Assembly (NCBI GenBank): GCA_964019335.1
Contig: OZ025706.1
Location: 1-64,000, forward strand
From: Diplonema japonicum
Lineage: Eukaryota; Protista; Euglenozoa: Diplonemea
Length of the DNA stretch: 64,000 nt
Direction: 5' to 3'
Part shown: one piece after another, positions 1-50,847 of the stretch
Layout of the letters: each line of letters opens with the position of its first letter
How positions within the stretch are numbered: position 1 is the stretch's first letter
Program-made: the position numbers and the translations under genes
Notes under the pieces: model-generated
Told to the model about the DNA's origin: nothing
The model's input: the letters and a program-made list of their open reading frames with translations, nothing else
The model's database searches: none

Positions 1-740
1 TTTGCGGGTTTGCGGGTTTGCGGGTTTGCGGGTTTGCGGGTTTGCGGGTTTGCGGGTTTGCGGGTTTGCGGGTTTGCGGGTTTGCGGGTTTGCGGGTTTG
101 CGGGTTTGCGGGTTTGCGGGTTTGCGGGTTTGCGGGTTTGCGGGTTTGCGGGTTTGCGGGTTTGCGGGTTTGCGGGTTTGCGGGTTTGCGGGTTTGCGGG
201 TTTGCGGGTTTGCGGGTTTGCGGGTTTGCGGGTTTGCGGGTTTGCGGGTTTGCGGGTTTGCGGGTTTGCGGGTTTGCGGGTTTGCGGGTTTGCGGGTTTG
301 CGGGTTTGCGGGTTTGCGGGTTTGCGGGTTTGCGGGTTTGCGGGTTTGCGGGTTTGCGGGTTTGCGGGTTTGCGGGTTTGCGGGTTTGCGGGTTTGCGGG
401 TTTGCGGGTTTGCGGGTTTGCGGGTTTGCGGGTTTGCGGGTTTGCGGGTTTGCGGGTTTGCGGGTTTGCGGGTTTGCGGGTTTGCGGGTTTGCGGGTTTG
501 CGGGTTTGCGGGTTTGCGGGTTTGCGGGTTTGCGGGTTTGCGGGTTTGCGGGTTTGCGGGTTTGCGGGTTTGCGGGTTTGCGGGTTTGCGGGTTTGCGGG
601 TTTGCGGGTTTGCGGGTTTGCGGGTTTGCGGGTTTGCGGGTTTGCGGGTTTGCGGGTTTGCGGGTTTGCGGGTTTGCGGGTTTGCGGGTTTGCGGGTTTG
701 CGGGTTTGCGGGTTTGCGGGTTTGCGGGTTTGCGGGTTTG
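1..740 (+). repeat. Perfect tandem array (TTTGCGGG)n, 92.5 units, telomere-like; runs off the left edge of the window
   Basis: Directly visible 8-nt period with no variant units seen. It has the T-run plus GGG composition typical of telomerase repeats, but the G-rich strand points inward. Confidence 0.95.
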
Positions 741-1372
741 AGCCCTGCGGCGGCGGCCACCTCCCTCACCCACCCCTCCGCCCCCCCTGGGATCCCCGTG
801 GTGGGGCGCACCTTGGCGTTCGTCCCCTCCCACCGGTACCCGTATTGGAGGGTCTCCCTCCCTGAGTTCCCAGACAGGGCCTCCCACTTTCCTGAAAGCA
901 GGGCTTTCGGGAAGGCAGGGGCCGGGCCCGTCCTCAACCCGGGAGGGTGTTCACCATACACCAGTACCCACCCCTTTTTTTCTCCCTCTTTTCTTCCCTC
1001 TTCAACAATAGCAGGGTCGGCTGCAGGGGTCGTGGTCGCGGCGGTCGTGGCTGCGGCAGGGGCGGCTGCGGCGGTCTCAGTTGCGGCGATCAGGGCGGCA
1101 GGGTCGGCTGCGGCGTTCAGGGCGGCTGGGGCGGCCGTGGCTGTAGCAGCGGCGGTCAAAACCGCGGTCTCTGCTAGTGATTTTTTTAGTTTATTTTGTT
1201 TTTCTAAAGGGGGGTGGGGGGATCTAGGGGGTGGGGGTGGGGATTCATACTGCCCAACCAGATAGTCTGGTTGGGTCGGCCCTGGCGTCGTGTGCAGCCT
1301 GGCGGCCTGTTGGGGTTCCTTCTCCCTGCGGTTTGTGCGGTCACCTCCTCTTGCGTTCCGTCTTGGATCCAT
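740..1372 (-). pseudogene. 3'-truncated ORF (211 codons, MDPRRNARGG...): Pro/Ala-rich N-terminus plus the first half of an AlkB-like 2OG-Fe(II) dioxygenase; runs without a stop into the repeat array
   Basis: Manual translation from the ATG at 1372 ends ...LLSGKWEALSGNSGRETLQYGYRWEGTNAKVRPTTGIPGGAEGWVREVAAAAGL|KPANPQ. This resembles the AlkB W...R..xQ/HYGYxY...IP pattern that precedes the NxY...HxD motif. It is absent from the ORF track because it has no stop codon. Confidence 0.55.
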
Positions 1373-1542
1373 TTTTTATTTTTTTTTTTTTTTAAAAGTG
1401 TGTGTTGGGGGAGGGGATCCTTTCGGTAAGCGGCGGGCAGGCCGACGGGCAAAACAACCCCCCCGGACGACGGCGACGACGGACGACGGACGCAGCGGCA
1501 AACCCAGGCAGAGGCGGCAGGCACCAGCAGAACACGAACGAC

Positions 1543-1581
1543 CAATAAAGTACAGAAACTGTAGCTTTAGAATCGTTGGAT
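1543..1581 (-). ncRNA. Euglenozoan (diplonemid-type) spliced-leader exon, probably a retro-copied SL rather than an SL RNA gene
   Basis: Minus strand reads ATCCAACGATTCTAAAGCTACAGTTTCTGTACTTTATTG (39 nt). The 3' part CAGTTTCTGTACTTTATTG is the conserved kinetoplastid/diplonemid SL core, and CCAACGATT...AAAGCTA matches the diplonemid SL as I recall it. It is followed by GTCGTTCG rather than a GTATG-type SL intron. Confidence 0.9.
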
Positions 1582-1686
1582 TTGACGCCGGGTGGTCAAA
1601 ACAAAAAATTGCGGGTTTGCGGGCCGGCCCCTTGTCCCAAAATATAAAAAACGCGATTTGACGCCGGGTGGTCAAAACAAAAAATT
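1579..1686. repeat. Two identical 32-bp direct repeats (1579-1610, 1655-1686), each a TTTGAC/GTCAAA hairpin, with about 2 units of the TTTGCGGG repeat at 1609-1623
   Basis: GATTTGACGCCGGGTGGTCAAAACAAAAAATT occurs twice, and TTGCGGGTTTGCGGG follows the first copy. Confidence 0.9.
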
Positions 1687-1697
1687 TGAATTAGTCC

Positions 1698-1807
1698 GGG
1701 TTCCGCGGCCTTCGGCCGCGGAACCCTTGTATTGAGGGTATATTATATTTTGCGCGGCCTTCGGCCGTGGTACCCACCCCCCTCTGCGGCCTTCGGCCGC
1801 GGAACCC
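1698..1807. repeat. Three GC-rich palindromes with a TTC/GAA triloop (1698-1726, ~1754-1768, 1786-1807)
   Basis: GGGTTCCGCGGCC-TTC-GGCCGCGGAACCC is a perfect 13-bp stem. The core GCGGCCTTCGGCCG recurs twice more. Confidence 0.9.
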
Positions 1808-2865
1808 GGTATTAGAAGAAACAAAATCTAGTGACTTCAGCAAAACCGACTAGAACATTAGACACATGTAAGTAATTAGAAACAGTTGAACTGTATCTTA
1901 GAGTGTTTGGATTTTTTTTTTTTTGGATTTTTTTTTTGGACCAACATACAATCCACGTCTCTAATTTTAAACAAGAGGCCTTGTTCCTGTAGTTTATCTG
2001 TAGTTTAGTAAAGTTCAGTGTATTTCGAGGTGCTGACTTTACTAAGCAGTAACTCTTAAGCGAACCACGCTGCTCTGAAAGTGATGTAAGTTATTGGTTC
2101 CTTGACCCATAGCTCGACAGTTGCTATGCTATGCTGTCTATTTCACGTTGGAACACTTCCTTCGGTGTAATGCAGACATCTGAAATTTGGTATTTCCCTG
2201 TATGAGGTACAAATAGAAGGCAGGTTCTTTTTTAAATTTTTTCATAGAATTAGTTTTTGGTCTATGGACCATAAACAAAGAAAGAAAAAATCTAAAATGA
2301 TAAGATGAGACACGTGACGTGAAAAACAAATGTTTGTAATGCAAGATGGTAACTGGTCACCAACCCAAAAACAGAACATCTCATGAATAAAATAAAGTAA
2401 TGAATATTTTCCTGAACCACAGATGCAAAATATAAAGATTGCAGTAAAACTGAAAAATTGATTTTTTTGAACGCGAAAGTGGCACAAGTCAAACGGCACA
2501 GACTTCACTGAAATGACTCGCTTAAGGGAGATTACACACCTAGATCCAGAAAAGGTCTTGTTGCCCCTCAAAAAGAAGGAGGAAGAAAAGAGTGGACTGG
2601 CGCCGGCAACACCGCACTCTTTTTGTTCGCACGAACAAAATTTTTAAAAGCTGCGGAAGCTACAAAAATCATTTTTGAAAGATAAATATTTGCAACAAAA
2701 GAAATACGGTACAAAAAAAGAGATAGAAAAGAGGGAAACAGGAGATGGCATATTCAAAAGTCCAATGAAAAATTCTAAATGATAATGAGGAGGGGAAATG
2801 GAGAGAAGATGTAAATATGAAGAAATCTAAAAACCTTTTTTCTCAGATCAGGAAACGTGACAAAC

Positions 2866-5800
2866 CTACTCAACGCGGTTCCAATCTGTGTCCATGGGAG
2901 GCAGGGTCTCGTACTCGCCTTCTGTCGGTGCAACGTGCACCCAACTCGTTGCGTGGTTCTTCAGCTTAATAGTTTGGCTCGCGTACTTTATTTTGATTTG
3001 TTCAAAGCACGCGTCGGTCAGTGAGCTGCCATTCGATTGCAGAATAGCATTGAACCTGTGGAATATCCCAATCAACTTCTCCCAATGAGGGTCGGACATC
3101 AGTGTTCCGATGTTGCCCACCACGAACAACGCAGCTATGGGGCGGCTGATCGCCACATTAAGCCTCTGCGGTTGCTGAAGGAATCCAATGCTCTGCCTGT
3201 GGTCGTTCGGCACTTCATCTGCTTCCTGTGAACGCACGCAGGAAAGGATGATAACGTTTGCCTCACGTCCCTGGAAGGTTTCCACGGAGCACACAGAAAC
3301 AGGCAACTGATTCCTTTTGTAGTTCCACGGCTTTATGAATGGATAGTACCCGGCCTCAAATTTGTAGTGTATCTTATCACGAATCACCTGGCACTGCTTC
3401 AGGTACGGCGTAAGCACCACAATGTCTTCAAACTTGAGCTTCCCGGTGTTCAACAACTCTTCTACTAAGTCAACCACTTTGTAAGCTTCCGCCTCGTTCT
3501 TCCACGATGGTGAGTCTTCCTCACGTGTTTCCTTCCCTGCCACATGGTAAAAGGCAAGTGGGTGAAACTTCTCCGACGGGACAGCAAGGCTATACGGAAA
3601 GAGGGAAGTGCCCTTCAAAAGTTCTCTTTTCGCAAGCGGCGCACGTGCTCGGAGGGTGTTGTTGTAGGTCAGCTCGTTGTACACAGCCATGATGCTCGGG
3701 TGGGCTCGGTAACTGTCTAGAAGCTGCACTGAATGTTGTGGACACGTCTTCATTAGACGCTCCAGAACTGACACTCCAAATCCAAGAACTTGGCAGGGCA
3801 TAGAGCGGAGTACTGGTCCAAGCTGCTTGTGGTCACCAGCAAAGGCGATGACTGTTCCACGCTCCCCGAGCTCAAAGTGAGGACCATTCATAAACTGCAA
3901 TGGCACAAGAAGCTCCGTCTCTGTTGCCTGACCTGCCTCGTCAACCGCAATATGTGTGAAATTCCCCTTCTTAACACCCATTGTGTACAAGGTCCCTGTC
4001 ACCATCAGTGTGCACACGATTAACTCAGCCCCTTCCAGATCCGCTACAGTCAGGCCCGATGCTCGTTTTGCAAACCTTCGAACATCTTTACTGCAACTTT
4101 CGATATTGTAGCTCTCTGCCAGCAGGCGTATATGCTTGGTACCACATGATGCACCTCCACGCTCGACAAGACGTTCAAACAGTAAGTTCGCAGCTTCGTT
4201 GCTTGGTGTGGCCACTAGAATGCGTGGGCGTTCCCAAGATTGCCAACCAAGGAAACCGAACTTTAGTATGCCCTTCACCAGGATTAGATTGATTGCATCA
4301 ACTAGCGTTGTCGTCTTGCCCGTACCAGGTGGGCCATGCAGCAGCACAAGATGGTGTTTGCCACATGGGACGGGTTGCAGGATCCGATTGACGCACTCTT
4401 TCTGCTCTAAGTTCATGTTCGTTTTGGAAGATGCATTGTTGTAGTACTGCAAACTGTCCCATTCGCGGTCGTGACAATCAGCAAAATGACTTTCAATGTA
4501 TCCGTCTGTCAATAGTGGTGCCTCGTCAACTGCGAGGAATTGCTTCCTCCAGTTTGTCTCCGGCATGCTGAAAATTACAAGAAACGTTGTCCTCTCAGAA
4601 GACAGGAAGCCGATGCCAAACTTCACAAGCACATGGTCAAGGTTCACGAAGTGCACGAAACCTAAGTGCCATCTCATGCTCCCGTTGTCTCGCACACGCA
4701 CCTTGTCACCACGCAACACACTGGGACGCTTCTCGGCAAGCCCCTTGCAGTCGATGCGGTACAGCCCATGTTGCCCATCCCGACGAATAGCAGCATTATG
4801 CAAATCATATGCCCGAACATCACTGATGTTCTGCGTGGTTTCAACAGCCAGCAAGTTCTTAAAGAACTGTCTTGCAGTCTGCGGCTTCCCAAGAGCACTC
4901 TCACGTGTCATGTTCCCCTGTCCGATTCCCAGCTTATCAGCAGTGTACAGATCTCTCAGGAATCTTGCACCGTACCATCCTTTCTTTTTCCTCGATTCTT
5001 CTGACGATGCAGCAACACCTTCAAGGAGGAAACGCGGGATGACCATCCGCAACGTAGGGAGGTCCATCTCGTACTCGATCTTTGCCATTACTGGGGGATC
5101 GCCTCTTTGTTCTTGCGTGAATTTGATGTCCATCTGCTGCTGTCTAGTAACCTGTCCTGTTGCTTCGAGGAGAGTGTGCTTCAGATCGCAGAAGGCATTA
5201 CTACATTTGCCTGATAGTGCGAATTTACGGCACCTCATCTCTTCTCTTGTGTGGGCAAACCAGCAGTCTCCCCACATATACTTTCTACACGTATCACCCC
5301 GTTTGCACATTGTAGTCTTCCTCATTAATGAGGCATCAGGTCTGTCTTCGACTTTGACGTTCCAGCACACACCGCAGAACGCCTTTTTTTTTCCCTTCCG
5401 TGCCTCCGCAACCATCCTTTTGCAGCCTTGACAACGCACACGTCTTCCGCTTATACTCGATATGACACCCAGGGGGAGAAGCGAGTTGTTGTAAAAGTTG
5501 GAATTGAGGACGCTTTTGTCAGATACGTCGACCTTCAGGTACGCGTACTTGATGGAGGCGGAACGAAGCCCCCCGAGAGCTGAAGATGCCATGTCGCGAT
5601 TCTTGATAATACTATAATACAAATCCACAAGCAGTGACACATCCTCGGCTGCGTATTCTAAAAGCTTCGCGTCTAGCGGGCGCTCCATCCAGAAGGCGCT
5701 GCCTCCCTCTCGCATCCTCTTCGATACCTCATCTAGGGTGGAGGTGTCGCCCACGGAAAACTCCTTCAGGCACCATTTCAAAGACCTGATGCGTGTACAG

Positions 5801-6159
5801 TAGGGGTTCTGCTTCTCTTTCCTTGACAGTACTTCGAGAATTTGGATATCGAATATGTTCTTGCACACCCTCACACCCCACAAATGCGCCATCGCATCAC
5901 AATCCGACCTGCAGTCGTACATCAGTTTCAAAATCTTTCCGGAAAAGAGAGCTTGCATGAACTGGATGAGAACACCAAGCGAAACCTTCAGCACATCGAT
6001 GACATACAATCCTCGTTCACACGACAACTGAACAAGCGATATCTTCCCGTTGCGTCCTAGGTCTTGCCCTTCCAAGTCAACCGAAACACACCCAGTGCCA
6101 AGCACTACACGCATAGCATCATGCAGCTCTGCCGTTGTCTGGCAGTACTTCATCCTCAT
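2866..6159 (-). CDS. DEDDy 3'-5' exonuclease + zinc fingers + MOV10/SDE3/Armitage-type (UPF1-like SF1) RNA helicase fusion, 1097 aa
   Basis: Exonuclease motifs VSVDLEG, MYDCRSD and LEYAAEDV. CxxC...CxxC and two CCCH-like fingers. MOV10/SDE3-type GLAEKRPSVLRGD. Helicase motifs HGPPGTGKT, ATPSNEAA, VDEAGQ, AGDHKQLGP, YRAHP, SVETFQGRE and RLNVAISR. Confidence 0.88.
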   Translation of the reverse strand: MRMKYCQTTAELHDAMRVVLGTGCVSVDLEGQDLGRNGKISLVQLSCERGLYVIDVLKVSLGVLIQFMQALFSGKILKLMYDCRSDCDAMAHLWGVRVCKNIFDIQILEVLSRKEKQNPYCTRIRSLKWCLKEFSVGDTSTLDEVSKRMREGGSAFWMERPLDAKLLEYAAEDVSLLVDLYYSIIKNRDMASSALGGLRSASIKYAYLKVDVSDKSVLNSNFYNNSLLPLGVISSISGRRVRCQGCKRMVAEARKGKKKAFCGVCWNVKVEDRPDASLMRKTTMCKRGDTCRKYMWGDCWFAHTREEMRCRKFALSGKCSNAFCDLKHTLLEATGQVTRQQQMDIKFTQEQRGDPPVMAKIEYEMDLPTLRMVIPRFLLEGVAASSEESRKKKGWYGARFLRDLYTADKLGIGQGNMTRESALGKPQTARQFFKNLLAVETTQNISDVRAYDLHNAAIRRDGQHGLYRIDCKGLAEKRPSVLRGDKVRVRDNGSMRWHLGFVHFVNLDHVLVKFGIGFLSSERTTFLVIFSMPETNWRKQFLAVDEAPLLTDGYIESHFADCHDREWDSLQYYNNASSKTNMNLEQKECVNRILQPVPCGKHHLVLLHGPPGTGKTTTLVDAINLILVKGILKFGFLGWQSWERPRILVATPSNEAANLLFERLVERGGASCGTKHIRLLAESYNIESCSKDVRRFAKRASGLTVADLEGAELIVCTLMVTGTLYTMGVKKGNFTHIAVDEAGQATETELLVPLQFMNGPHFELGERGTVIAFAGDHKQLGPVLRSMPCQVLGFGVSVLERLMKTCPQHSVQLLDSYRAHPSIMAVYNELTYNNTLRARAPLAKRELLKGTSLFPYSLAVPSEKFHPLAFYHVAGKETREEDSPSWKNEAEAYKVVDLVEELLNTGKLKFEDIVVLTPYLKQCQVIRDKIHYKFEAGYYPFIKPWNYKRNQLPVSVCSVETFQGREANVIILSCVRSQEADEVPNDHRQSIGFLQQPQRLNVAISRPIAALFVVGNIGTLMSDPHWEKLIGIFHRFNAILQSNGSSLTDACFEQIKIKYASQTIKLKNHATSWVHVAPTEGEYETLPPMDTDWNRVE

Positions 6160-6239
6160 TGTTGTGATCCGAAACGAAAGGAGTTTGTTTTTTTCTTTTT
6201 CTTTTCCTGTGTTGCGATGGGTAATGGAAATGGAAATAA

Positions 6240-6288
6240 ATTCACTATGATAGGAACGAAGTGGTTAGCAACGGCCCGCCCAATAAAA
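6240..6288 (-). promoter_or_regulatory. Recurrent ~45-nt intergenic motif, copy 1
   Basis: Minus strand GGCGGGCCGTTGCTAACCACTTCGTTCCTATCATAGTGAAT, near-identical to 57002-57049 and similar to 23228-23274. It lies ~85 nt upstream of the helicase ATG. Function is inferred. Confidence 0.6.
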
Positions 6289-6545
6289 GTAAGCAATTCC
6301 TGTTTCCCGTTTCATCGTTCGTTATTCCTTCACAAGCACAGAGAGCAATTCTAGAGGTGCAGCCATGACCAGCACAATAAATATTTCTGGCCTTCCTCAA
6401 GAAAGCGGAAGACTTCCCGTATCGGGCCTAGTATCTCACTCGTGTAACTTACAGCAAATTCAGAGAGCTGATGGCTGCATTTAGCTTACCTAAGGTGTTA
6501 CTATGAATAGCACTTATTGTTATGAACTAATACAACAGAACACTT

Positions 6546-9500
6546 CTATAGTTTCCAGGAGTCGTCTTGCTCAGAACCAAACGGCTTCGTAGCTTCTGTG
6601 ATGAGCAGCTCACCGCACATTGGGCACTGCCCGCCTAAGATTTCATCCAACTCTTTCTTAAAGTCACGCGGCCTCGGTCCTGTGTCTTGTTCGTCGTCCT
6701 CAACTGTGATGGACCTCTCCAGCTGCCGGTGAATGCCTTTGATACGGTCGCGTGTCTCGAAAGGGACTGCCTCCGACTTCAGCAACACTTGAGTCAGACA
6801 GCTTTGGTGGAAGCCGTGGTCACATAAACCGAAGATGAAGAAGTTCTTAGACAGCAATGGGGCATTGCACGTCTTGCATTTGCTATCGGGCGCAATGAAC
6901 ACACCTTTCCTGTTCTCGGTGTTGACAGCAATTGTCTGTGCCAGAGTCGTCATGTCGTGCATCTCCCTCTTCAGGTTCTCAATTTCAAAATTGTAATCTG
7001 CCAGCGCTTCAAGAATAACATTCGAAAAGTCAGCCACTGTGACAGAGTCCCCGAAGAGCGGCAGGATGTCCTCCAAATGCAACGCGGGGCACTCTTGCAC
7101 CATGTCTATGGCTTTCTTTACCCCTTCAATTCTAGCGTCCATCTTGTCCATCTTGATTGTGTGTTCCACAATCTGAATCCACAACTGCTTCTTCTGCACC
7201 TCGTCGTCTGCGCAGTTTGCGAGCTTCTTAGCCAAAGGTATGTCATCGGACTGCAGCGACAACGTTACAGCATCGCCATGCATGCGCATCGTCGAGTAGA
7301 TCAAAGCAGCTGCTGAATATCGCTTGCCCTGCAAGCACAGCCTTAAGGCGTACTTCTTGTCGAAGGGTTCCGCCTCCTCATAAGCATAGCTGCTGCCATC
7401 AAAGCTTTCCAAGAACTGCAGCAGTTCAGTCTCATCATCGTACTGCTGGACATACACTAAAATCAACATATTGTTTATGGCAGGGTCCTCCGTTGAGTCC
7501 TTCACCAGCCACTTCAGGTACCTCACCGCCTGGTTCTCAGTGTCCCCTGGAGGGTTGTACCGCGGATGGTACAAGAGCAGTGCAGGGATCAGCCTCGATG
7601 GCTCGAGCATATTCGCAGCCTTACCTATCCATGCATCAACAACTTGCACAGGAGTCTTAGTGATGAGGCGCGGGCAGTACACGTACCATAGTTCAAGCAA
7701 GGAAGTCTTCATGCAGTTGTTAATCAAGCAGGTTAGGGCTGCCTGGTACTTTTCGTGCGTCATGTAAAAGGACATCATGCTTTTATAGTCCTTTGTGAGG
7801 CTCAGGAAGTATAGCATCTCATCGGGCATCCCATAGCTGTCGACGATGGGTGCTAGCACACTGGTCACCTTGTCTTGCGTATGATAGATGTCTCGCCTAC
7901 TGATATGGCTGAGGAAAGAGTGGAATTCCGCGCGCATGTCTTCTCTCTCGTTGCTATCCTCGCTTTCAGCGATGATGTCCAGCATCACCTTCGACGCCCA
8001 AATGTACAGGCACACGGTCTGCGACCCCTCCTGCTCCATCGCAAACCTTCTGGATTCGATGAATGTGATTCTCTCCCGTAAATATAGCAACAGTGCCTTG
8101 CGGTCGCCACACTGCACGAACTTCATTGCGGTGTCCTCAAATGCTGCGTTGGTGGTTGCTAACGTCTTCGCTGCTCGTGTGTATTCGCGTTCTTCAAAAT
8201 AATAATCAGCAGCTGCCATTTGTATCTGTTCCTTCCTCTTGGGCTCTGTACACATATCAGCAGCTGCAACGAAGTACTGCCCACGCTCTTGCTCGTCAGG
8301 GTTCATGGCCCGCAGCAGGAAAGACTTCCAGCTGTCGGACGATTGCTCGGGGATTTCCAATTCATGCAACTTGTCGGTGGTCACCAAGTAGGGCTTGTTG
8401 CTGTGCTCGTTTTCGTCGAAAATGAAAGCAAACGCGTTCTGCTGCGACTTGCTAGGGTCCCCAATAAGCCTCTTTTTTAGCTCTTCCGGCTTGATCATGT
8501 CATGGGGCTCTGTGTCGGCACGCCAACGCAGACCTGCTGGTTGTGCGATGATGCACACTCTGCTGTCCAGTAGCACTGTCATTGTGGTCTCACCGAGGAT
8601 GATGTGGTTCACCTTCTCCACTGCAAGCGACTGCGACGACTGGTCGGGTCTGACAGACATCCCCAGCTGCGAGGTGAGCAGCCTCCCTGGGAGGCTTCGG
8701 CCTTCTTTCATCAGTGAAAAGAACGAGCCGTTCTGCAACACTGGATCACCAGGAGAATCGGGCCACGACACGATAGCATGATATATGCCTCCCGCTGAGC
8801 ACCAGGCCACGCTGCACCGGGGGCTGAGCTTGTCATCAACCTTTGGTCTGTGGAGGTACAGATTTCCGGCATGCGGTGACACGTCCTGCGGCACCTGCGA
8901 CCTCACGGTGAAGGGGTCTAATAAGTTCTCCGCGTTGAAGACGTCTTCGAGAGTGGGCCCTCCTGTGAACACACACAACCTCGTGGCTGTCGAGATTAAA
9001 ACCACCAGCCGTTTTCCGACACCCAGTTTTTCAATCCTAATTCCTGTAATGGTGCTGTACTTCTTACTGTCGATCTGCCGCGCAAGGTCATAGGCATGGG
9101 TCAGCACAGTGCAGCCTTCTTTTTTTTCAAACCGTGCGATGTAGACCATCCCTCTGTTGTCGCCTAGCAGGATGTGGCCTGTGCTGCTTTCACGTTTGTT
9201 GTCTCGGTTCCAACCCACTGCTGTCAGCCTACTCTTGATTCTTTCGATCTTCTCGGGTTTGCCTGCCTTGCCCAGACTAGTGTTGATGTACCACGTCTCA
9301 CCGCTCTTGTCAGACGTGAGGGCAAGGAGGATGTGCTGCCCAGTCGGGTCGATGAAAATATTGTGCACATCAGAACCCTTTTTATTTTTCTTGTGCTTCA
9401 CGGGACCGGACCTTGGCTCGTAAACGTCTCCGGAACAAGTGTCGTTGATACGCAGCACCCACCGGTCACTCTGGAGCAGTGCTATTGCAAACACGTCATT

Positions 9501-9662
9501 CCCAACAGCGGCACACAGCACTCTCTCCTCACTTTCGTCGATCGGCATGTAAGCATCGCTCAACTGCAGGTTGGCTACAGGTTTCTCTACCTGAGCCTTT
9601 TCTTCTCGTTCATCATTCTGGATGTATGCATCTGTCTCACGCCACTGAGGCCAGTCATCCAT
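6546..9662 (-). CDS. VPS18: Vacuolar protein sorting 18 (Pep3/deep orange), HOPS/CORVET subunit
   Basis: N-terminal beta-propeller (IFIDPTGQH, TAVGWN), clathrin-like repeats and coiled coil. C-terminal RING-H2: CKTC...FIFGLCDHGFHQSC...CPMCGE. Confidence 0.92.
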   Translation of the reverse strand: MDDWPQWRETDAYIQNDEREEKAQVEKPVANLQLSDAYMPIDESEERVLCAAVGNDVFAIALLQSDRWVLRINDTCSGDVYEPRSGPVKHKKNKKGSDVHNIFIDPTGQHILLALTSDKSGETWYINTSLGKAGKPEKIERIKSRLTAVGWNRDNKRESSTGHILLGDNRGMVYIARFEKKEGCTVLTHAYDLARQIDSKKYSTITGIRIEKLGVGKRLVVLISTATRLCVFTGGPTLEDVFNAENLLDPFTVRSQVPQDVSPHAGNLYLHRPKVDDKLSPRCSVAWCSAGGIYHAIVSWPDSPGDPVLQNGSFFSLMKEGRSLPGRLLTSQLGMSVRPDQSSQSLAVEKVNHIILGETTMTVLLDSRVCIIAQPAGLRWRADTEPHDMIKPEELKKRLIGDPSKSQQNAFAFIFDENEHSNKPYLVTTDKLHELEIPEQSSDSWKSFLLRAMNPDEQERGQYFVAAADMCTEPKRKEQIQMAAADYYFEEREYTRAAKTLATTNAAFEDTAMKFVQCGDRKALLLYLRERITFIESRRFAMEQEGSQTVCLYIWASKVMLDIIAESEDSNEREDMRAEFHSFLSHISRRDIYHTQDKVTSVLAPIVDSYGMPDEMLYFLSLTKDYKSMMSFYMTHEKYQAALTCLINNCMKTSLLELWYVYCPRLITKTPVQVVDAWIGKAANMLEPSRLIPALLLYHPRYNPPGDTENQAVRYLKWLVKDSTEDPAINNMLILVYVQQYDDETELLQFLESFDGSSYAYEEAEPFDKKYALRLCLQGKRYSAAALIYSTMRMHGDAVTLSLQSDDIPLAKKLANCADDEVQKKQLWIQIVEHTIKMDKMDARIEGVKKAIDMVQECPALHLEDILPLFGDSVTVADFSNVILEALADYNFEIENLKREMHDMTTLAQTIAVNTENRKGVFIAPDSKCKTCNAPLLSKNFFIFGLCDHGFHQSCLTQVLLKSEAVPFETRDRIKGIHRQLERSITVEDDEQDTGPRPRDFKKELDEILGGQCPMCGELLITEATKPFGSEQDDSWKL

Positions 9663-9740
9663 GTCAATGTGCTACCTGAGTGGTTTACCTCTTGTTATAT
9701 AAAAGTAAGAAGAAAAGGGAGAAGGGAAATGCTCAACTAC

Positions 9741-10233: not shown

Positions 10234-11229
10234 TTAGTGATGCTCCATGAACTCAGCGATCCTGCCTATGGCATGGCTGGACTCAGGGAAGCATCCCGAA
10301 AAGATCGGGAAGGCATGCATCATGTTTCGTGCCATCCACACCTTCACCTCCACACCAGCAGATTCCGCCTTTTCAGCAGTGCGCACCGTGTCTGCACTCA
10401 TGATTTCCGACTCACCCGCAATGAAGAACAACGGCGGCAACCCTTCAAAAGAGCCGTAGTGGGCGCTCCATGTGGCATCCTTCGCGTCGTGGTCGGCAAT
10501 GCGTGCGCCCTGCTCATTGATGTTCCCACACGCCACCTGCCCGATGTGCTTAAGCACCTTTCTCGTCACCATGCAGTCACGGTCCTCGTTCACCATAGCC
10601 AAGTTGTCACCCGACAGATCGGTCAAAGCCGACAGCAGCACTGCACTGCTCGGCATCGAGACACCCTTCTTCTTCAGCGCTTGTAGAAGAAGTAGCACCA
10701 TTCCACCGCCAGCACTATCCCCTGTTAAAACAATCTGATTGGGGTCTACCTTCTGAGCAAGAAGCCCTTCATAAACGTGAACACAGTCCTCAAGGCCAGC
10801 CGGCATGGCGTGCTCAGGTGCCATCCTGTAGTCCACGGACACCACTGTGTAACCTGTTGCCCTGCTGAGCTCAAAGCTGTATCCCATGTGCGACTCAGGA
10901 GAGCCCCCCAGAAAGCCACCTCCGTGGAACTGCAGGATAGTTTTCCCTGTGCCCTGCCACTCCACACACCTGACACCCGCGATGGTTTTCGCTGTGCCAG
11001 GCTTACCAGGGGACATAAGCCTCGTGTTTTCGATGTCAGCGCGCAGCTGCTTGAGGTTGAAGGGCTTCGACTTGTTCCGCTCCTTGTTCATTCTGAATAT
11101 CATGTCGATCGAAATATACTCATCAGAAGGCCATGTGCCCTCAGCCCACGAAAGCTGCTTCACACGCTTTGCCTTCCACACAGTGTAGCTCCGCACCAAC
11201 TGAAGCACATAGTACGATACCTGCTCCAT
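10234..11229 (-). CDS. Hormone-sensitive-lipase family alpha/beta hydrolase (esterase), copy A
   Basis: HGGG oxyanion motif, VDYRMAPEH, GDSAGG nucleophile, acid in AGESE and His in MMHAF. Confidence 0.92.
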   Translation of the reverse strand: MEQVSYYVLQLVRSYTVWKAKRVKQLSWAEGTWPSDEYISIDMIFRMNKERNKSKPFNLKQLRADIENTRLMSPGKPGTAKTIAGVRCVEWQGTGKTILQFHGGGFLGGSPESHMGYSFELSRATGYTVVSVDYRMAPEHAMPAGLEDCVHVYEGLLAQKVDPNQIVLTGDSAGGGMVLLLLQALKKKGVSMPSSAVLLSALTDLSGDNLAMVNEDRDCMVTRKVLKHIGQVACGNINEQGARIADHDAKDATWSAHYGSFEGLPPLFFIAGESEIMSADTVRTAEKAESAGVEVKVWMARNMMHAFPIFSGCFPESSHAIGRIAEFMEHH

Positions 11230-11280
11230 GATACCTGTAGGGGGATGCTGAAGGGGTGTTGCAGCAACCTTAAAAAAGTC

Positions 11281-11345
11281 TAGTTCACATTAATCATGTA
11301 AGGGGTGGTAAGTGTTGGTCGTGTGTCGTCGAAGTGTGGATGAGG
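11281..11345 (-). pseudogene. Decayed relic of the 3' end of the RIIa-domain gene, co-duplicated with the esterase
   Basis: TAGTTCACATTAATCA is identical at 11281-11296 and 13044-13059. The adjacent ~50 nt is recognisably similar to 13070-13125 (FDDTRPT vs LDDSSTI). Confidence 0.55.
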
Positions 11346-11994
11346 ACCTGGAGGGCGCTCAGGGTGCTGCTCGAAAGGTGCGCGTGTCGGGTAGCTTGCG
11401 GAAACTATCGCTATGAGCCGAAGAAAAAGGAGGAATGGTTTCAACAGGGTTACACCGTACGCTGTAAACATGGTAATTACACTGTCGATGACCCAACGGT
11501 GGAGGCTGAGACTTGTTGCTGCCCCTTATAGCAATTGATGGAGAGAAAAAAGACCTAAAACAAAAAAAAAGGGGGGGGAAAGACATTTATTCACAACAAG
11601 TGCCAAATTTATTTCAAAAGACATATAATTCAGTAGGGCGTGAATAAGTGGTTTTATCATGCATGCTGCAGTTATTATATATTCATTCAGTGCCCCCTCT
11701 AAAGGGAAACAGTCCTTGTTTGATCCCGTGAGGGTGTAATATAAGGGTGTAAATGACATAAAACTGAGGGCGGGATAAAATCTTAATATTCTTTTTCAGT
11801 AAACTATTGTTGGAAATAAAACACTTGTAGTCTAAGAGGCTTCATCTGCTGGAAAAGCGCCTCGGAACTTCGCCCCAGATGGGGACCTCAGAGGAGAGAA
11901 AAAAAATAAAGGGTAGATTCACCGGATGCACGGCACTTGCGGATGAACAACACAATAATGGCAAATAAAGAAAGAGCGTAGTTTGTCGCTTAAC

Positions 11995-12990
11995 CTAGTG
12001 ATGCTCCATGAACTCAGCGATCCTGCCTATGGCATGGCTGGACTCAGGGAAGCATCCCGAATAGATCGGGAAGGCATGCATCATGTTTCGTGCCATCCAC
12101 ACCTTCACCTCCACACCAGCAGATTCCGCCTTTTCAGCAGTGCGCACCGTGTCTGCACTCATGATTTCCGACCCGCCCGCAATAAAGAACAACGGCGGCA
12201 ACCCTTCAAAAGAGCCGTAGTGGGCGCTCCATGTGGCATCCTTCGCGTCGTGGTCGGCAATGCGTGCGCCCTGCTCATTGATGTTCCCACACGCCACCTG
12301 CCCGATGTGCTTAAGTATGTTATTCCTTATCATGCAGTCACGGTCCTCGCTCACCATTGTCAAACATTCACATGACAGGTCCGTCCAAGCCGACAGCAGC
12401 ACTGCACTGCTCGGCATCGAGACACCCTTCTTCTTCAGCGCTTGTAGAAGAAGTAGCACCATTCCACCGCCAGCACTATCCCCTGTTAAAACAATCTGAT
12501 TGGGGTCTACCTTCTGAGCAAGAAGCCCTTCATAAACGTGAACACAGTCCTCAAGGCCAGCCGGCATGGCGTGCTCAGGTGCCATCCTGTAGTCCACGGA
12601 CACCACTGTGTAACCTGTTGCCCTGCTGAGCTCAAAGCTGTATCCCATGTGCGACTCAGGAGAGCCCCCCAGAAAGCCACCTCCGTGGAACTGCAGGATA
12701 GTTTTCCCTGTGCCCTGCCACTCCACACACCTGACACCCGCGATGGTTTTCGCTGTGCCAGGCTTACCAGGGGACATAAGCCTCGTGTTTTCGATGTTAG
12801 CACGCAGCTGCTTGAGGTGGAAGGGCTTCGACTTGTTCTGTTCCTTGAACGTTCTGAATATCATGTCGACTGCAATATACTCATCAGAAGGCCATGTGCC
12901 CTCAGCCCACGAAAGCTGCTTCACACGCTTTGCCTTCCACAAATTGTAGCTCCACACCAGCTGGATCGCATAATACAATACTTGTTCCAT
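11995..12990 (-). CDS. HSL-family alpha/beta hydrolase (esterase), copy B (tandem duplicate)
   Basis: Same motifs and length (331 aa) as copy A; the core is identical. Confidence 0.92.
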   Translation of the reverse strand: MEQVLYYAIQLVWSYNLWKAKRVKQLSWAEGTWPSDEYIAVDMIFRTFKEQNKSKPFHLKQLRANIENTRLMSPGKPGTAKTIAGVRCVEWQGTGKTILQFHGGGFLGGSPESHMGYSFELSRATGYTVVSVDYRMAPEHAMPAGLEDCVHVYEGLLAQKVDPNQIVLTGDSAGGGMVLLLLQALKKKGVSMPSSAVLLSAWTDLSCECLTMVSEDRDCMIRNNILKHIGQVACGNINEQGARIADHDAKDATWSAHYGSFEGLPPLFFIAGGSEIMSADTVRTAEKAESAGVEVKVWMARNMMHAFPIYSGCFPESSHAIGRIAEFMEHH

Positions 12991-44667: not shown

Positions 44668-47600
44668 CTATTTTTTATTCATGTTGAATATCTCCATCAC
44701 AGTGTCGACGATAGCTCGACGTTTCTCAGACAAGGGGGAAGCTGCGGGCGACATGTCCCGTTGGGTTTTGGTCCTGTCGTAGCTCTGCCTGGACAAGGGC
44801 GCCGTTTTTTTCGCCTGCGTGAAAGTGATGGAAGGCGACGCTGGCGTGGGCTGTGGTGTGGGCCCAAGAACATTGCCGAAACCCCTGCACTCTATCCCCG
44901 CGTTGACCGCTAGCGCAGCAAGCTTTGTGATGAACGTCCTGCGGTCCCTTACATCAGAGTACTCCGGCAGCTGCCCACCAGTGCCCCTTACGTCGTCTAC
45001 CTTATAAGCAACAAGCTGGTTTCTCTTCGGGTCGTACTTCAGAGCGACTGCCTCCAGTAATGTCACCCCGCTCACCTTGAGAGCCACGTACCCGACATGA
45101 GCCACGAACTCCACCAGCTCGTTGCCGCCTGATATGAAGGACACCTCACGTGTTGCACTGTAATCCTCGATCTCTGCTGTGTGTTTGCTTCTGCCGTTTC
45201 TCGCTTCTTTTTTCTTCGCTAGATCCATAGTCGGAGATCTCTTGAAGGTCTTGGCAGGCGCTGTTGCGTGCCTCTGGAAGGATCTCCCCTCGTCGCTCCT
45301 TGCGGACAGTACTCCGTTCGTGGATGTGGACGCTGTTGACAGTGGTGACATGACACCCTTCGTTTTGCTTTTCTTCGGTTCTTCGTTTTGGTCGAGCTTT
45401 CCGCTGCTGCGTCGCTTGATGAGCTCCATGTCGACGCGTGGTCCTATGGACTGTGCCCGTGCCCTCCGTGTCATCGGGACACCGTTCCTTTCCCCTACTA
45501 CCGTGTTCCGTCTTTCCCGCATGCCGCCTCCCGGCGATGCTTCCCTCACCATGGTTTTCTTCACCACCGTCTCTGGCTTGTCTTTGGCCACAATCGCCGC
45601 CGCCATTGTCTCTGGTGCACTGCCCCGCCTTTCCTTGTTGTGCACTGGTGTATCCCCAAAACCGCTGTGGTGGATCGAGCCCCTTCTCTTAGCCGGCGAC
45701 ATCCCAGCCGCCTCTTTCATTTCCCGTTCTTTGTTCAAAATCGCTTTCCGTTGCAGCCAGAAATTCTGCCTCGCCAGCCCCGACCCTGTTGTCGGTGTAG
45801 GCTGTGGCGTCTCGACGACACGCGGTGTGGGGTCGCTGTGAGGTGTGGATGCAGCAAGGAGGACATACATCTCGATCTTTGTGGTGGACTTCCTCCTTGC
45901 TGAAATGTTCCCTTGACTGGGAGACGGCTCGGCCTGCCTCGTGTTGACCACCTTGACGCTGGTCTCATGGTCAGTCCGCCTGTGCTGTGTTACAAAACCA
46001 AGGAAGCATACCTTTCGTATCCCCCGGCTGGTGTCCGCACCAAGGCAGGAGTGATGGTAAGCGGGTTGGGTTGGGCGGACTTCGGAAGAGTCTCCAACTG
46101 TCTGCGCTCCACAAGCGACGCAGTCGAAGTCTGGCGCGTGATGCTCTCGCTTGTTTCGCTGGCGACCCGCCTCTGGTCATCAACTGTCATTGGTGAAAAG
46201 AAGCGCTGGACGCCTTTCTTGCTCTCATCCAACCGGCTGTTGCTCTCTACACTCCTGTGGCAATGTGTGGTGTGATGTGCTGCATACTGTGCTGTCTCGT
46301 CATCGCTCACGGACTCACAGACGCTGACTTCCAGTAGTCTCTTATCCAGCCCCTTGGGCTTTTCAGTCTGCGGGGAGGTAAGGGAGTCCGCGGAGGGCGC
46401 AGTGTGAATGCTGGGGACTTTAGGGATGGAAGAGAAGGGCTGGGGATCCAATGCTTGGACGACCGGATGGTCTGGGTCTGGGTCTGGGTCAGGGTCAGGG
46501 TCAGGGACTGGGTCAGTGACGGGGGACGTGGTGTCAGCTGGACCACGGAGTGGGGACATTGGGGGCTCCTCGCTTTCAGGGGGTGGGCACGGTGCGGGGG
46601 CCACTAAGGGGGATGCGGCGCCGTCGAGCTGTGACTTCTGTGAAGATCGCAGTCTTCGCATGCTGCTCCTGGGCGATGGAGAACACTCCCTCATGGAGAG
46701 CGAGCCCTCTTGTAGGTGCTCGGACAAACACTTGCACAGATGGATCAGCTGCAGGTTGGACGTCCCTGGGTAGTCGTTTTCATAGTCATCGACGACGAGG
46801 TTCAACAGCTCCGCCAAGAGCTCGAAATCTTTCATGCTGGCGTAGTCTGTCAGGAGTGAAAGGTCAGGGTTGAAGGGCATACCGGTCGAGTCGGCGTTGT
46901 CTAGCCACACGTTGGCTAGCTCTAGATACTTGCTTATTTCACTAAGGGTCTTCTCCAGGTAATCCAGATCAATCTCTTCTGCTCGCAGGTATGCTTCCTC
47001 TAAGCAATTCCGCTTCTCAGCCATTTCTTCGAGTATTCTTCGTTGTTCTTTCACTTCTCGTATCTCCGTCTCAAGCACCTCCGTACCTTTCTCATCTAAC
47101 ACCAGTGCAGACGCTTGCTGTACATAGGGAATGAAGAGGGGTATAAAAACAATGGATAACACACCTTCACAGGCAGCGGGCAAAACGGCACGTTGTCCGT
47201 CCTAAGCATCCACTCCTGCTTTTCCAACCCTTTAACATTGCAAAGGACAGTCACCTGTGTGCATAGATAGTGGGAGGTGCAGTCATACGCTGCTATCATT
47301 CTCTGGAACAAGACACCCATCTAAAGGTGGCTGTGAGGGGGATAGGGGTGTGTCGTTGATGGCATTCGTTATTTCTTCCTAGATAGAAATTGCTTTTTTT
47401 ATTATGTTTGTTGCACACACCTCTGATATAGTACACTCACTGCCATTTCGTTGGCAGCTTGTAAGTTGCGCGAACATAGTAGTGGCTCCCTGTTGTGTAT
47501 AATGGTGCAAAGGACTGGTACCTCACGTAGCGTGTCTCGGATGTCATTTCTGAAGACTGGGACTGGTGGCCTGCACGTGTTGTCCTTCGTCCAGTAGTTG

Positions 47601-48712
47601 AAAGGACTTGCTGTTGGGTTGCACAATGTGTCTCTCTGATCCTCTGGGTCCCACCGCGCGCATCCTTTTACGCAGCTGTAGTCGTAGTCCATGACCTCGA
47701 TGGCGATGTTCATTCCCCTGCCCCCACCGTTCTGAACGATCTCGCGTACGCTGAGCATCCTCCCAGCGCCACCGACGATGAGCGCAACGGATACGTCCTG
47801 TGTTGATGGGTATCCGTGATGGTGGTACCATACCGGATGTGCTGCCGTTAGGTGGCTTATCATGGCTCTCAGCTTATCGAGGAAAGGCTTGGCCCCCTCG
47901 TGCAGCTGCTCTCGAGTTACGCTGACCTTCGCACCGCTGAGTTCTATCACAGCCTCTCGTAGGGATGAAAGGTCTTTCTTCGCCTTTTCCACCGCCGCGT
48001 TAAGCGTGACAGGGTGGTGCAGGTACACGTTCGGCACGTCAACGTTGTTGAGGAACATCTTGTCGATATCGTAGCCGCCCAAGCGCATTGCCTTTGTGGC
48101 CACGATTTCTGATTTGTACTTGCTGACCTCCACGATGGACGCTGAGGTGAACCTGCACCCTACGTCCACCACAAGGCAGCGCTGTGCTTTGGCGGATGCT
48201 TTCAGAGACTGCGATCTGCTGTAGTGCATCGCTGCAGCAAGCGTGCTGTAATAGATGTTGAAAATACAAGATTTAAATACACACCTTGGGATGAACGTCA
48301 CATTTTTCAATCCAGCAGCAAAGGCAGCAGTTTTAAGCCTTTCAAGCTCCATCCCCGATAGGCCTGCAGGGGCCGACACCACACACGACTTGATGGCTCC
48401 GTGAGAAGAGATGCTCTTTTTCAATTTGTCGAAGATCATTGCAAGGGCAAGTTCCACACTCACTTCCTTCTCCCCCCTGCGGTGGCATAACTTCGCGCGT
48501 CGTCTCGCCTTCAGCGAGGCGGTGAGATGCCGCAAAGTGTTGCAGTGCCTTGTTTCAAGCTCTCGGCACGCATCTTTGCCGACCAGCAACTGGTCGGTCA
48601 GCGCCACAACGGTCGGGGTCACGGTCGAGGAGGAGGGCTCTGCCACTCTGCCATCGACGCAAACAGTTACCCTGCTGGTCTGTGAGCCTACATCAAACCC
48701 TGCTACGACCAT
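44668..48712 (-). CDS. Atypical Hsp70/Hsp110-like protein with a long disordered tail, about 8 tiny introns
   Basis: GFDVGSQT, TPTVVA, PSTLAAA, VVDVG, GGYDID and VGGAGRM. GT-AG introns (e.g. 48246-48284) join ORFs 47402-48712, 47096-47320, 45990-47183 and 44668-45951 in one frame. Confidence 0.7.
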
Positions 48713-48784
48713 TACTTCTTAATATGTGTTGTGGCATTTACTGTGATAAAGTTAAGGTTGGTTCACTTTAAACGATAAATGCAA

Positions 48785-50847
48785 CTATGCCTGGTCAGAC
48801 CCCGACCCAAACCAGCAGCGCCCAAGGAAGCCTGCAAAAAGGACGGGGAGAGCGAAGAAAGCAACACGTTTGTAGCTCGAAATAGGAGGTTCCACACAGA
48901 TCGTGTCTTGTTCTGTTGCCATCTGCTTCACGATGATATTCCTGACTGAAGTCTCATCAGTGCTGGCCATGTGCCTCATTGCTTCTTCTTCGAAGACGGC
49001 CAACTCCAGCAGAAGCGAGCACATAATGCCAGTCTCCTCTGAAACAATGGTCTTTGCGATGGCAGTGCGCTCTTCATCCAATTCTGCAAGTAGCTCTGCA
49101 GTGCTTCTGAAGTACTTTTTGTCTAAGCCACTCTCCAGCTCTGCGGTGTTACTCTCGGTTCCCTCCTCGAAGGCATCCACTAGACTGTTCACAAGCTCTA
49201 TCATCTGCGCCATGTCAAGCACCATGTCTACGGTGGAGTGCTTCACCCACTTGTTCGCTAAGTCCAAGTATTTTAGTTTGTCAGGACACGCAGCTTCAAA
49301 CTCCTCGGGGTTGTCCATGCACTCAACGCGCAGCGTCGCTTCTTCAAGATCGTTGCGCCGCTCTTCCAGTTCCTTCATCATTTTGTTATGCTCTTGCAGC
49401 TTGTCCATCTTCGCCCGAACCTTCTTCGAGCATCCGACCAGCGGGGAATACACTTCTGCGTCCCCCTCAGGTCCACCAATTCCTAATGCTATCTCCTTAC
49501 CCTGCCCCGTCAGCTTGTACACCACCGTCACCTTGTGATCGCTGCTGTCTAGAGAACCGTGTAAAGGGGGACTCTGTGGAGGCAGAGGTGTTGCCTCGTC
49601 GTGTGCTAGGAGCAGGTCCTATGGTGATTGAACAGGCGTTCTGGCATACCTCGTGGCTCACTTTATGCTCCTTGTCGTCGATACCTTTCAGATGTTCATA
49701 TACAAAACTGCTCCCCTGGTTATTAGTGGCACGCAAACTGGTTACCATACCTCTTCCTCCTTCGTATGCGTTACGCTATCCCTGAACACCATGACAGGCT
49801 CGTCCCCTTTCCTTGTCCAGTAGGCAAAGGGGCGTTCGCGTGGCTTCGGTAGCTCAGATGAGCTGCTGCTCACTTCTTGCCATTTTGCACACCCCTGGAC
49901 AGAACTGTACTCAGGATCCATGACCTCGATGGTGATCTTTCTGCCTGCACCCCCACCGTTTTCAACCACGTCGCGTACACTGTGCATCCTCGCGGCACCC
50001 CCAACCAACAGTGCCACGACCACCTCCTGATGGTGTGATTTATACTGATTACATTACGGCATACCGAGTGCTCGATAACTAGCTGGCTGACCATAGTCTT
50101 GAGCTTCTCCAAGAACGGCTTCGAAGCCTGTTCAAGCTGATCCCTGTTCACAAACTGCACGTGGTTTCTCAGCTCCAGCTTTGCCTCGGGCATGACGGCA
50201 AGGTTCTTCTTGGTTGTCTCCACCGCGGCCAGCAGAACGTTCGGGTGCGTGCCCTCAGCAGAGAGCTTCAGGAAGTCAAGGAACAACTTGTCGATGTCGT
50301 GGCCGCCCATGCGCATGGCTCTGGTGGCTATAATCTTTGACTTATGCTTGCTGACCTCCACGATGGATGCCGAGGTGAACCTGCACCCTACGTCCACCAC
50401 AAGACATTTAGTGTCCGGAGTAACACAGTACTTAGACCACGCGATTGCTGCTGCAAGTGTGCTCGGGATGAACGTTACATCTTTTAATCCTGCTGCAGTG
50501 GTGGCAGTACGGAGCCTCTCCACCTCCATGCGCGACAAGCCATCCGAAACGGAAATCACAGTGGTGTCTTCACCGCTCATATTCAGCTTTTTCAGGATCA
50601 TCGCCAGCGCCAGCTCTACGCTCACTTCCTCCTCGCCTCGGGGATGCTTCAGCTGTACGTCATGCCTCACCTTCAGGGCTGCAGGGAGATGTTGGACCGT
50701 GTTCAGATGCCTCGTGCTAAGCTCTTTCACTGCTTCATCAGTCAGAAGCATTTTATCTGTGTAGGCTATCACCGCAGGGTGACTGCTCGACTTCTTCCCA
50801 TTGTTAACCTTGATGCTCTGCGACCCAGCATCGAAGAAGATCGGCAT
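48785..50847 (-). CDS. Atypical Hsp70/Hsp110-like paralogue with a C-terminal transmembrane anchor, 3 introns
   Basis: FFDAGSQS, PSTLAAA, CLVVDVGCRFTSASIVEVSK (identical to the neighbour) and VGGAARM; ends KRVAFFALPVLFAGFLGRCWF. Confidence 0.72.

Follow-up and report, generated by a model that had tools for sequence, protein, structure and literature searches.

Positions 1-740 of the window, the 64,000-nt stretch of Diplonema DNA analyzed here, form a perfect tandem array of the octamer TTTGCGGG, followed inward by a truncated retroelement fragment headed by a spliced leader (SL) and by a one-way gene cluster pointing at the array. The feature as a whole is a compound structure, more than a bare array. 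We tentatively suggest that the window start is a Diplonema chromosome end in which the C-rich strand, reading (CCCGCAAA)n, lies at the 3' terminus, and in which an insert similar to the MoTeR elements of Magnaporthe oryzae was broken and re-capped. Reversed polarity is in our judgement the single best reading of the locus, although one that may well be wrong, being about as likely as its two biological rivals together. In telomerase-made ends, a 3' terminus on the G-rich strand is regarded as near-universal, and models of how single-strand binding proteins and G-quadruplexes protect ends build on it. A strand-swapped eukaryote, if true, would thus offer a direct test, in a culturable group, of whether biochemistry requires the G-strand rule or history happened to fix it. 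Even under the rival explanations, the locus would provide a candidate diplonemid telomere or satellite motif departing from the TTAGGG of Euglenozoa, along with a repeat-targeting element that displays an unusual pattern of 3'-cut copies.

Array, element, and inner junction at the window start

The array, the element, and the junction between them and unique DNA comprise the following features:

1..740, plus strand (G-rich): perfect TTTGCGGG array; the minus strand reads (CCCGCAAA)n toward base 1
741..1579, minus strand: 5' 839 nt of a multicopy SL-headed element, which points to base 1 and is cut off by the array
740..1372, minus strand: truncated open reading frame (ORF) P0006, 211 amino acids, with a Pro/Ala-rich N-terminus and no stop codon either ahead of or within the array
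1543..1579, minus strand: SL exon with 2 nt missing at its start; it agrees with the published 'Euglenozoa 14' leader at 35 of 37 letters (PMC3795323)
1579..1610, plus strand: exact 32-nt duplicate of 1655-1686, located at the element's 5' junction (repeat-family search)
1609..1623, plus strand: 15-nt remnant of the TTTGCGGG repeat, in the array's polarity (letter check and shuffles)
1655..1686, plus strand: second 32-nt copy, the putative template (repeat-family search)

The array comprises 92.5 units with 100% matches and no indels (Tandem Repeats Finder (TRF) score 1480, and letter-by-letter check), so that a sequence-only reading of this DNA, which had described a flawless 92.5-unit array, is borne out on this point. 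Its claim of a G-rich plus strand, in inverted polarity relative to the genes, also holds, based on the letter check and on the directions of ORFs and Pfam matches. The unit, a T-run plus a G-run, has the shape of telomere motifs, and a short tandem repeat that is homogeneous and G/C-asymmetric between its strands, here over 92.5 perfect units, is characteristic of telomerase-type telomeres. Templated synthesis is expected to give arrays free of variant units. The degenerate units associated with interstitial or satellite arrays are absent (0 variants in 740 nt); variant units do occur beside other element copies in the junction listing of public sequencing runs. The departure from telomerase-type telomeres lies in polarity: the G-rich strand, read 5' to 3', does not point away from chromosome DNA, as judged from the unique DNA located 3' of the G strand in the window, the inner remnant, and 2/2 long flanks in a public run (X2, see below). 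Doubled TTAGGG or CCCTAA units were absent from the whole 64-kb window in the letter check, and an Rfam scan of 700-2900 returned a single match at chance level (E 0.22). Because a random tile boundary would seldom land inside such an array, the window start is likely also the contig start.

Within 741-64000, the longest match to the repeat is the 15-nt remnant at 1609-1623, which lies on the same strand as the array and has non-repeat DNA on both sides, while block shuffles reached at most 13 nt in 100/100 cases. Going along the minus strand in the direction of base 1, the order of features is unique DNA, 15-nt repeat (1623-1609), 32-nt copy, leader, 5' untranslated part, ORF, and array, with the 32-nt copy overlapping the leader by 1 nt and the remnant by 2 nt as read from the sequence. 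We interpret this copy as a probable locally templated insertion, and the remnant as presumably marking where the array originally met unique DNA. Since remnant and outer array share the same polarity, and since the 32-nt duplication was copied from the unique side, the polarity appears to predate the insertion. This lends support to one option of the sequence-only reading, a new motif with reversed strand asymmetry, in that the polarity of the array relative to unique DNA was already set at the 15-nt remnant. A second option, which covered an internal or fusion array or one rebuilt by retro-insertion, gains in its retro-insertion part, as a retroelement fragment sits in the array.

The repeat and the element in public sequencing runs

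Fifteen public runs were listed, nine of which contain at least half of the words of 741-9700; no RNA run was listed among them. Contigs from runs X1, X3, X5, and X6 were compared with positions 677-3700, and those of X2 and X3 with a neutral probe in which foreign flanks enclose 35 nt of repeat, i.e., five different runs overall. X1 and X5 are two samples of one study, for which counts are to be taken as "at least", and one run may be the window's own source. Contig depth over 741-1579 was 274-880 versus 17.7 for unique DNA in X3, and 3220-4841 versus 331-403 in X5. For 741-1580, this corresponds to a rough excess of ~15-50-fold (X3) and ~8-15-fold (X5) over unique DNA, depth not being equal to copy number, and depth drops close to the unique-DNA level from 1687 onward. 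Beyond 741, other copies of the element extend for at least 255 letters of non-array sequence (loose ends before 738/740, X1 and X3).

Across the X1, X3, X5, and X6 contigs, the array was joined to the 3'-cut side of the element in 6/12 joints. These are located at 879, 1154, and 1545 (X1 and X5), 1062 (X1), 1190 (X5), and 1542 (X6), the last with 31 other letters before the array. By comparison, an array capping an internal element position on the 5' side was found in 0/12 joints, within the 839 nt probed. Overall, there are six repeat-capped 3'-side cuts (the window and five joints) versus no repeat-capped internal 5' cut, and the window copy and at least five others end at differing 3'-side points, passing straight into repeat. 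Relative to unique DNA, the depth of these 3'-cut joints was 0.7-1.5x for the four in X5 and 0.5-1.5x for 3/4 in X1, where the remaining one reached 4-7x. The leader end (1579) was joined to repeat in 5 of the 12 rows listed (out of 15), and other copies therefore have repeat on both sides. A single orientation of the element within the repeat was observed, with the sense strand being the C-rich strand (window, 6/12 joints, and 5/12 rows), and no strand-changing joint was found among the joints listed. Microhomology at six junctions amounted to 1, 2, 4, 3, 0, and 0 nt (four computed, two by eye). A fixed priming register at these junctions was rejected, as no one register fits all six and the apparent pattern follows from base composition.

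With the neutral probe, 23 contigs were obtained in X2, in which 2/2 long non-repeat flanks lie 3' of the G strand and none lies 5' (median 255 letters, one contig reaching 1,763 nt). Six pure-repeat contigs at depth 25000, apparently a ceiling, account for the X2 profile. They correspond to a repeat total of at least about 9-14 kb in this run (depth 25000 versus 14-22, a rough figure), so that the repeat exists far beyond the 1-740 array. In X3, the same probe yielded one non-repeat loose end, which we take to be an Illumina adapter. Because the repeat is joined to this apparent adapter in one run and forms very deep pure-repeat contigs, it is real DNA rather than a long-read artefact. In addition, the 5' part of the element is carried by an X5 contig of 11,520 nt in which the leader side continues into a long stretch of other DNA. 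Two further X2 pieces found with the neutral probe, as well as a count of chromosome ends from non-pure repeat depth in X2 (3,856 summed), were dropped, variant or error k-mers being indistinguishable from junctions.

Several additional observations concern the element and the repeat. In both X1 and X5, a joint from 736 to 1545 places the array next to an almost bare SL exon (35 nt), at approximately unique depth. An X6 contig (739 to 1542) reads from leader through 31 other letters into C-strand repeat. Leader-bearing contigs are very abundant in X6, which is without cover at 1687-2243 (not used as evidence); if this contig derives from RNA, it would represent a trans-spliced, C-rich, TERRA-like transcript. 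The end of P0006, together with its continuation in other copies, by eye resembles what we assume to be the start of an AlkB-type domain. Searches failed to confirm this identity: Pfam gave nothing relevant, two homolog searches gave 0 matches, and a representative protein search gave four matches, all to unrelated repetitive proteins. There was likewise no usable match for P0006 in Atlas and a single chance match in PDB, and a viral match was rejected as it involved one locus and a 33-residue local alignment inside an unrelated 860-amino acid ORF. The repeat itself was found in 28 metagenome stretches that were set aside as unrelated, as each lacked the SL core, doubled TTAGGG units, and any similarity to 741-2860, and in 0 viral contigs. 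One 567-kb metagenome contig carries (CCCGCAAA)7 at three places with identical 60-nt flanks, and in that unrelated genome the octamer is, judging from these flanks, part of a repeated element.

Polarity of the array and competing readings

If polarity is reversed, position 1623 would first have been where the array met unique DNA, its C strand running outward. A repeat-targeting element without long terminal repeats (non-LTR) would have inserted 15 nt into this existing array by target-primed reverse transcription, its leader recording a trans-spliced RNA copied almost to the cap, and the 32-nt duplication would have been copied from 76 nt upstream by templated joining during closure of the 5' junction. 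The outer part of the element would then have been lost inside the ORF by breakage or erosion, and the outer break healed by fresh repeats, as a mirror image of MoTeR. The adding enzyme may be a telomerase with a G-rich RNA template or, alternatively, the repeats may have been copied from other arrays by recombination. If base 1 is the chromosome tip, the C-rich strand would run out to the end. Extending this to the telomeres of this Diplonema in general, we consider it conceivable, and hold a shade more cautiously, that they are of reversed polarity with a (CCCGCAAA)n 3' end, whose synthesis would involve either a telomerase carrying an inverted, G-rich RNA template or a route independent of telomerase. 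In this picture, the SL-headed retroelement would insert into these caps with its 5' end inward, and erosion and re-capping would proceed from its 3' side.

Close parallels are found in fungi. MoTeR elements always have their 5' end toward the chromosome end, their 5' truncations are capped by a de novo telomere, and their relics keep 3' ends (10.1101/845669), and FoTeR elements of Fusarium oxysporum share this orientation (PMC12857005). Like MoTeR1/2 and FoTeR, the Diplonema element is found inside a telomere-type repeat in which it leaves a short interstitial tract, its truncated copies pass directly into capping repeats, and it is present in one orientation only, with the sense strand as the C-rich strand. 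Unlike in these elements, the SL-bearing 5' end faces the 62 kb of genes instead of the terminus, and it is the 3' side that is cut; this window does not include the RT and REL domains, the ORF being cut at residue 211. Since the truncated side of MoTeR faces the terminus, and the cut side here is the 3' side of the element, in the 3' direction of the C strand, this side would by analogy be the outer one. The structure may work like a telomere carrying a MoTeR-type insert, and we did not file it as a telomere or as a MoTeR/FoTeR member because its polarity differs from that of both.

Among euglenozoan site-specific mobile elements, the trypanosomatid SLACS/CRE are tied to the SL sequence and TATE to telomeric repeats. 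SLACS/CRE/CZAR and TATE elements have been named for D. papillatum (PMC10161547). The Diplonema element resembles these in its association with a leader or with telomere-type repeats, and differs from SLACS/CRE/CZAR in that the leader heads the element, while the flank is the 8-mer repeat and not a leader gene array.

Several points weigh against reversed polarity. We know of no telomere with a C-rich 3' strand, none of reversed polarity was among the literature matches listed, and the prior for such a telomere is thus low. Base 1 as a contig or chromosome end is an assumption and concerns one window end alone, and the element was probed over its 5' 839 nt only. The short side of the 3'-cut joints spans 22-27 letters, in a range (below 30) for which the tool issues a warning, and five of these joints stem from two samples of one study (3/5 in both), with X3 contigs showing none of the five. 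Both junction types are equally compatible with priming at a telomere of ordinary polarity, and microhomology does not stand out clearly from random joins (P about 0.07). The 2/2 flank count is weak, as it is based on the best 8 of 23 pieces, 14/23 of which fit two places, and is further weakened by common junctions collapsing into 31-mers without visible flank. Finally, internal arrays do exist, since repeat follows the leader end in other copies.

This last point leads to an explanation that we consider unlikely but that has to be taken seriously, namely that the repeat is an internal or subtelomeric satellite serving as a retroelement target. The window would in this case start at an assembly break, or off the contig start, and the real telomeres would be others, possibly TTAGGG. 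The trypanosomatid telomere motif is TTAGGG. Euglena telomerase likewise makes TTAGGG in a telomerase assay (PMC3622300), and this retention in Euglena is in line with a satellite, as are the element copies bordered by repeat on both sides elsewhere and the assumption involved in treating base 1 as an end. Like the telomeres of Euglena and trypanosomatids, the array consists of short, perfect T/G repeats with strand asymmetry and lies where a euglenozoan one-way gene cluster ends downstream. Unlike them, it is composed of an 8-mer with CG in place of TTAGGG, and its G-rich strand points inward if base 1 is the end. A satellite would have to accommodate 740 nt without one variant unit, and a long internal array would be expected to leave kilobases, not 0.74 kb, at a long-read contig end. 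It also predicts unique flanks on both sides, yet 0/2 of the long flanks are on the 5' side of the G strand, and recurrent 3'-cut, repeat-capped copies would require an additional deletion mechanism. Array perfection and the 2/2 flank count together exclude the satellite weakly.

Athena and Coprina Penelope-like elements, as well as L1 at uncapped telomeres, undergo endonuclease-independent priming by the G-strand end, which leaves 3'-cut fragments beside telomeric repeats as observed here. On this basis, and with a probability that we place lower again, TTTGCGGG could be a telomere motif of ordinary polarity whose tip block, 1-1623, was later fused inward to the gene cluster in the manner of a MoTeR relic, base 1 being an assembly break. 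The 3' end of the G strand would prime inside the leader-capped element RNA, and the cDNA would reach the cap and be re-capped, a route that predicts both junction types (repeat to 3'-cut fragment, and leader end to repeat) and preserves the general G-strand rule. This route nonetheless requires fusion and assembly break at the same spot. Priming of this type also predicts unique DNA 5' of the repeat, whereas it is found 3' in the window, and all long flanks (window, two in X2, and one in X5 via the element) are inverted, with 0 ordinary. The 32-nt copy from the unique side, located between leader and remnant, would be simpler to explain if the array already adjoined unique DNA. From known fungal elements, the sense strand as C-rich strand is shared with FoTeR, whose 3' ends precede TAACCC (PMC12857005), and inverted, internalised relics with interstitial telomere tracts are known in Magnaporthe, but MoTeR relics retain their 3' ends and are missing their 5' ends (10.1101/845669), the reverse of what is seen here. 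As for a sequencing or assembly artefact affecting the array or its orientation, this appears very improbable: while no listed contig bridges the exact 740/741 junction, the repeat is abundant in both neutral-probe runs (one with adapter read-through), the repeat-to-element polarity recurs in six joints, and reversal of a contig would leave the polarity of the repeat relative to the attached DNA unchanged.

Literature on diplonemid or Diplonema telomeres, Euglenozoa telomere motifs, and diplonemid genome notes yielded no diplonemid telomere sequence among the matches listed, the passages of PMC3622300 on Euglena make no mention of diplonemids, and no telomere-motif paper with TTTGCGGG, or with CCCGCAAA plus "telomer", was among the matches listed. 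The term "telomer" is absent from the searched text of PMC13598402, of which a longer version may mention it and bear on this claim, and from the available part of PMC12171722 (0 occurrences). The motif is also absent from seven supplements of PMC10161547, whose Additional file 1, outside the search, has a section on repeats that may bear on the claim. In budding yeasts, telomere repeats are not all G-rich (PMC12449055).

The gene cluster facing the array

Among ORFs of at least 150 amino acids, 38/50 are on the minus strand. Pfam matches were obtained for 16 of the 28 minus ORFs scanned, with 10 further minus ORFs outside the scan, and for 0/12 plus ORFs at the cut-off, one of which had a sub-threshold match. 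Because the ORFs with above-cut-off Pfam matches are all on the minus strand, the cluster, ~62 kb long and terminating at the array, points at the array; transcription of the genes toward it had been proposed earlier, and every gene with such a match does point there. No tRNA genes were found in the 64-kb window. One-way clusters of up to 99 genes are reported for D. papillatum (10.64898/2026.07.29.740908).

The Vps18 gene (6546-9662) provided five homolog matches including itself, the four others being D. ambulator (71%), D. papillatum (40%), Lacrimia lanifica (35%), and P0003 (41% identity). As the named relatives are two Diplonema species and L. lanifica, protein similarity places the window DNA in Diplonema, a marine flagellate, to the genus level. 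The sequence-only reading had reasoned from kinetoplastids, a premise that is wrong here, the named relatives being diplonemids with D. ambulator as the closest.

The last gene of the cluster (2866..6159, minus strand; ORF list and Pfam) encodes a 3'-5' exonuclease and MOV10-like helicase, and its product is likely an RNA-silencing or anti-retroelement protein, adjoining the retroelement fragment. It also includes a Cys/His-rich stretch that by eye resembles CCCH fingers. In its 3' region, a short multicopy stretch at 2495-2800, with depth spikes in 4/4 runs and many loose contig ends at 2495, 2672, and 2704, is possibly a small dispersed element. Between this gene and the element, the non-coding DNA includes three near-copies of a GC-rich hairpin (GCGGCC-TTC-GGCCGC) within a 27-nt inverted repeat at 1696-1809, and the fold of 1624-1830 has a z of -3.8, with 0/200 shuffles equally good; this hairpin region is possibly a termination or end-associated structure. 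Further inside the cluster, a near-identical tandem pair of genes for a 331-amino acid alpha/beta hydrolase (Abhydrolase_3) is located at 10234-12990 (minus strand), and two partial, divergent Hsp70-like ORFs (Pfam E 1e-15 and 1e-7) at 47402-50847 (minus strand).
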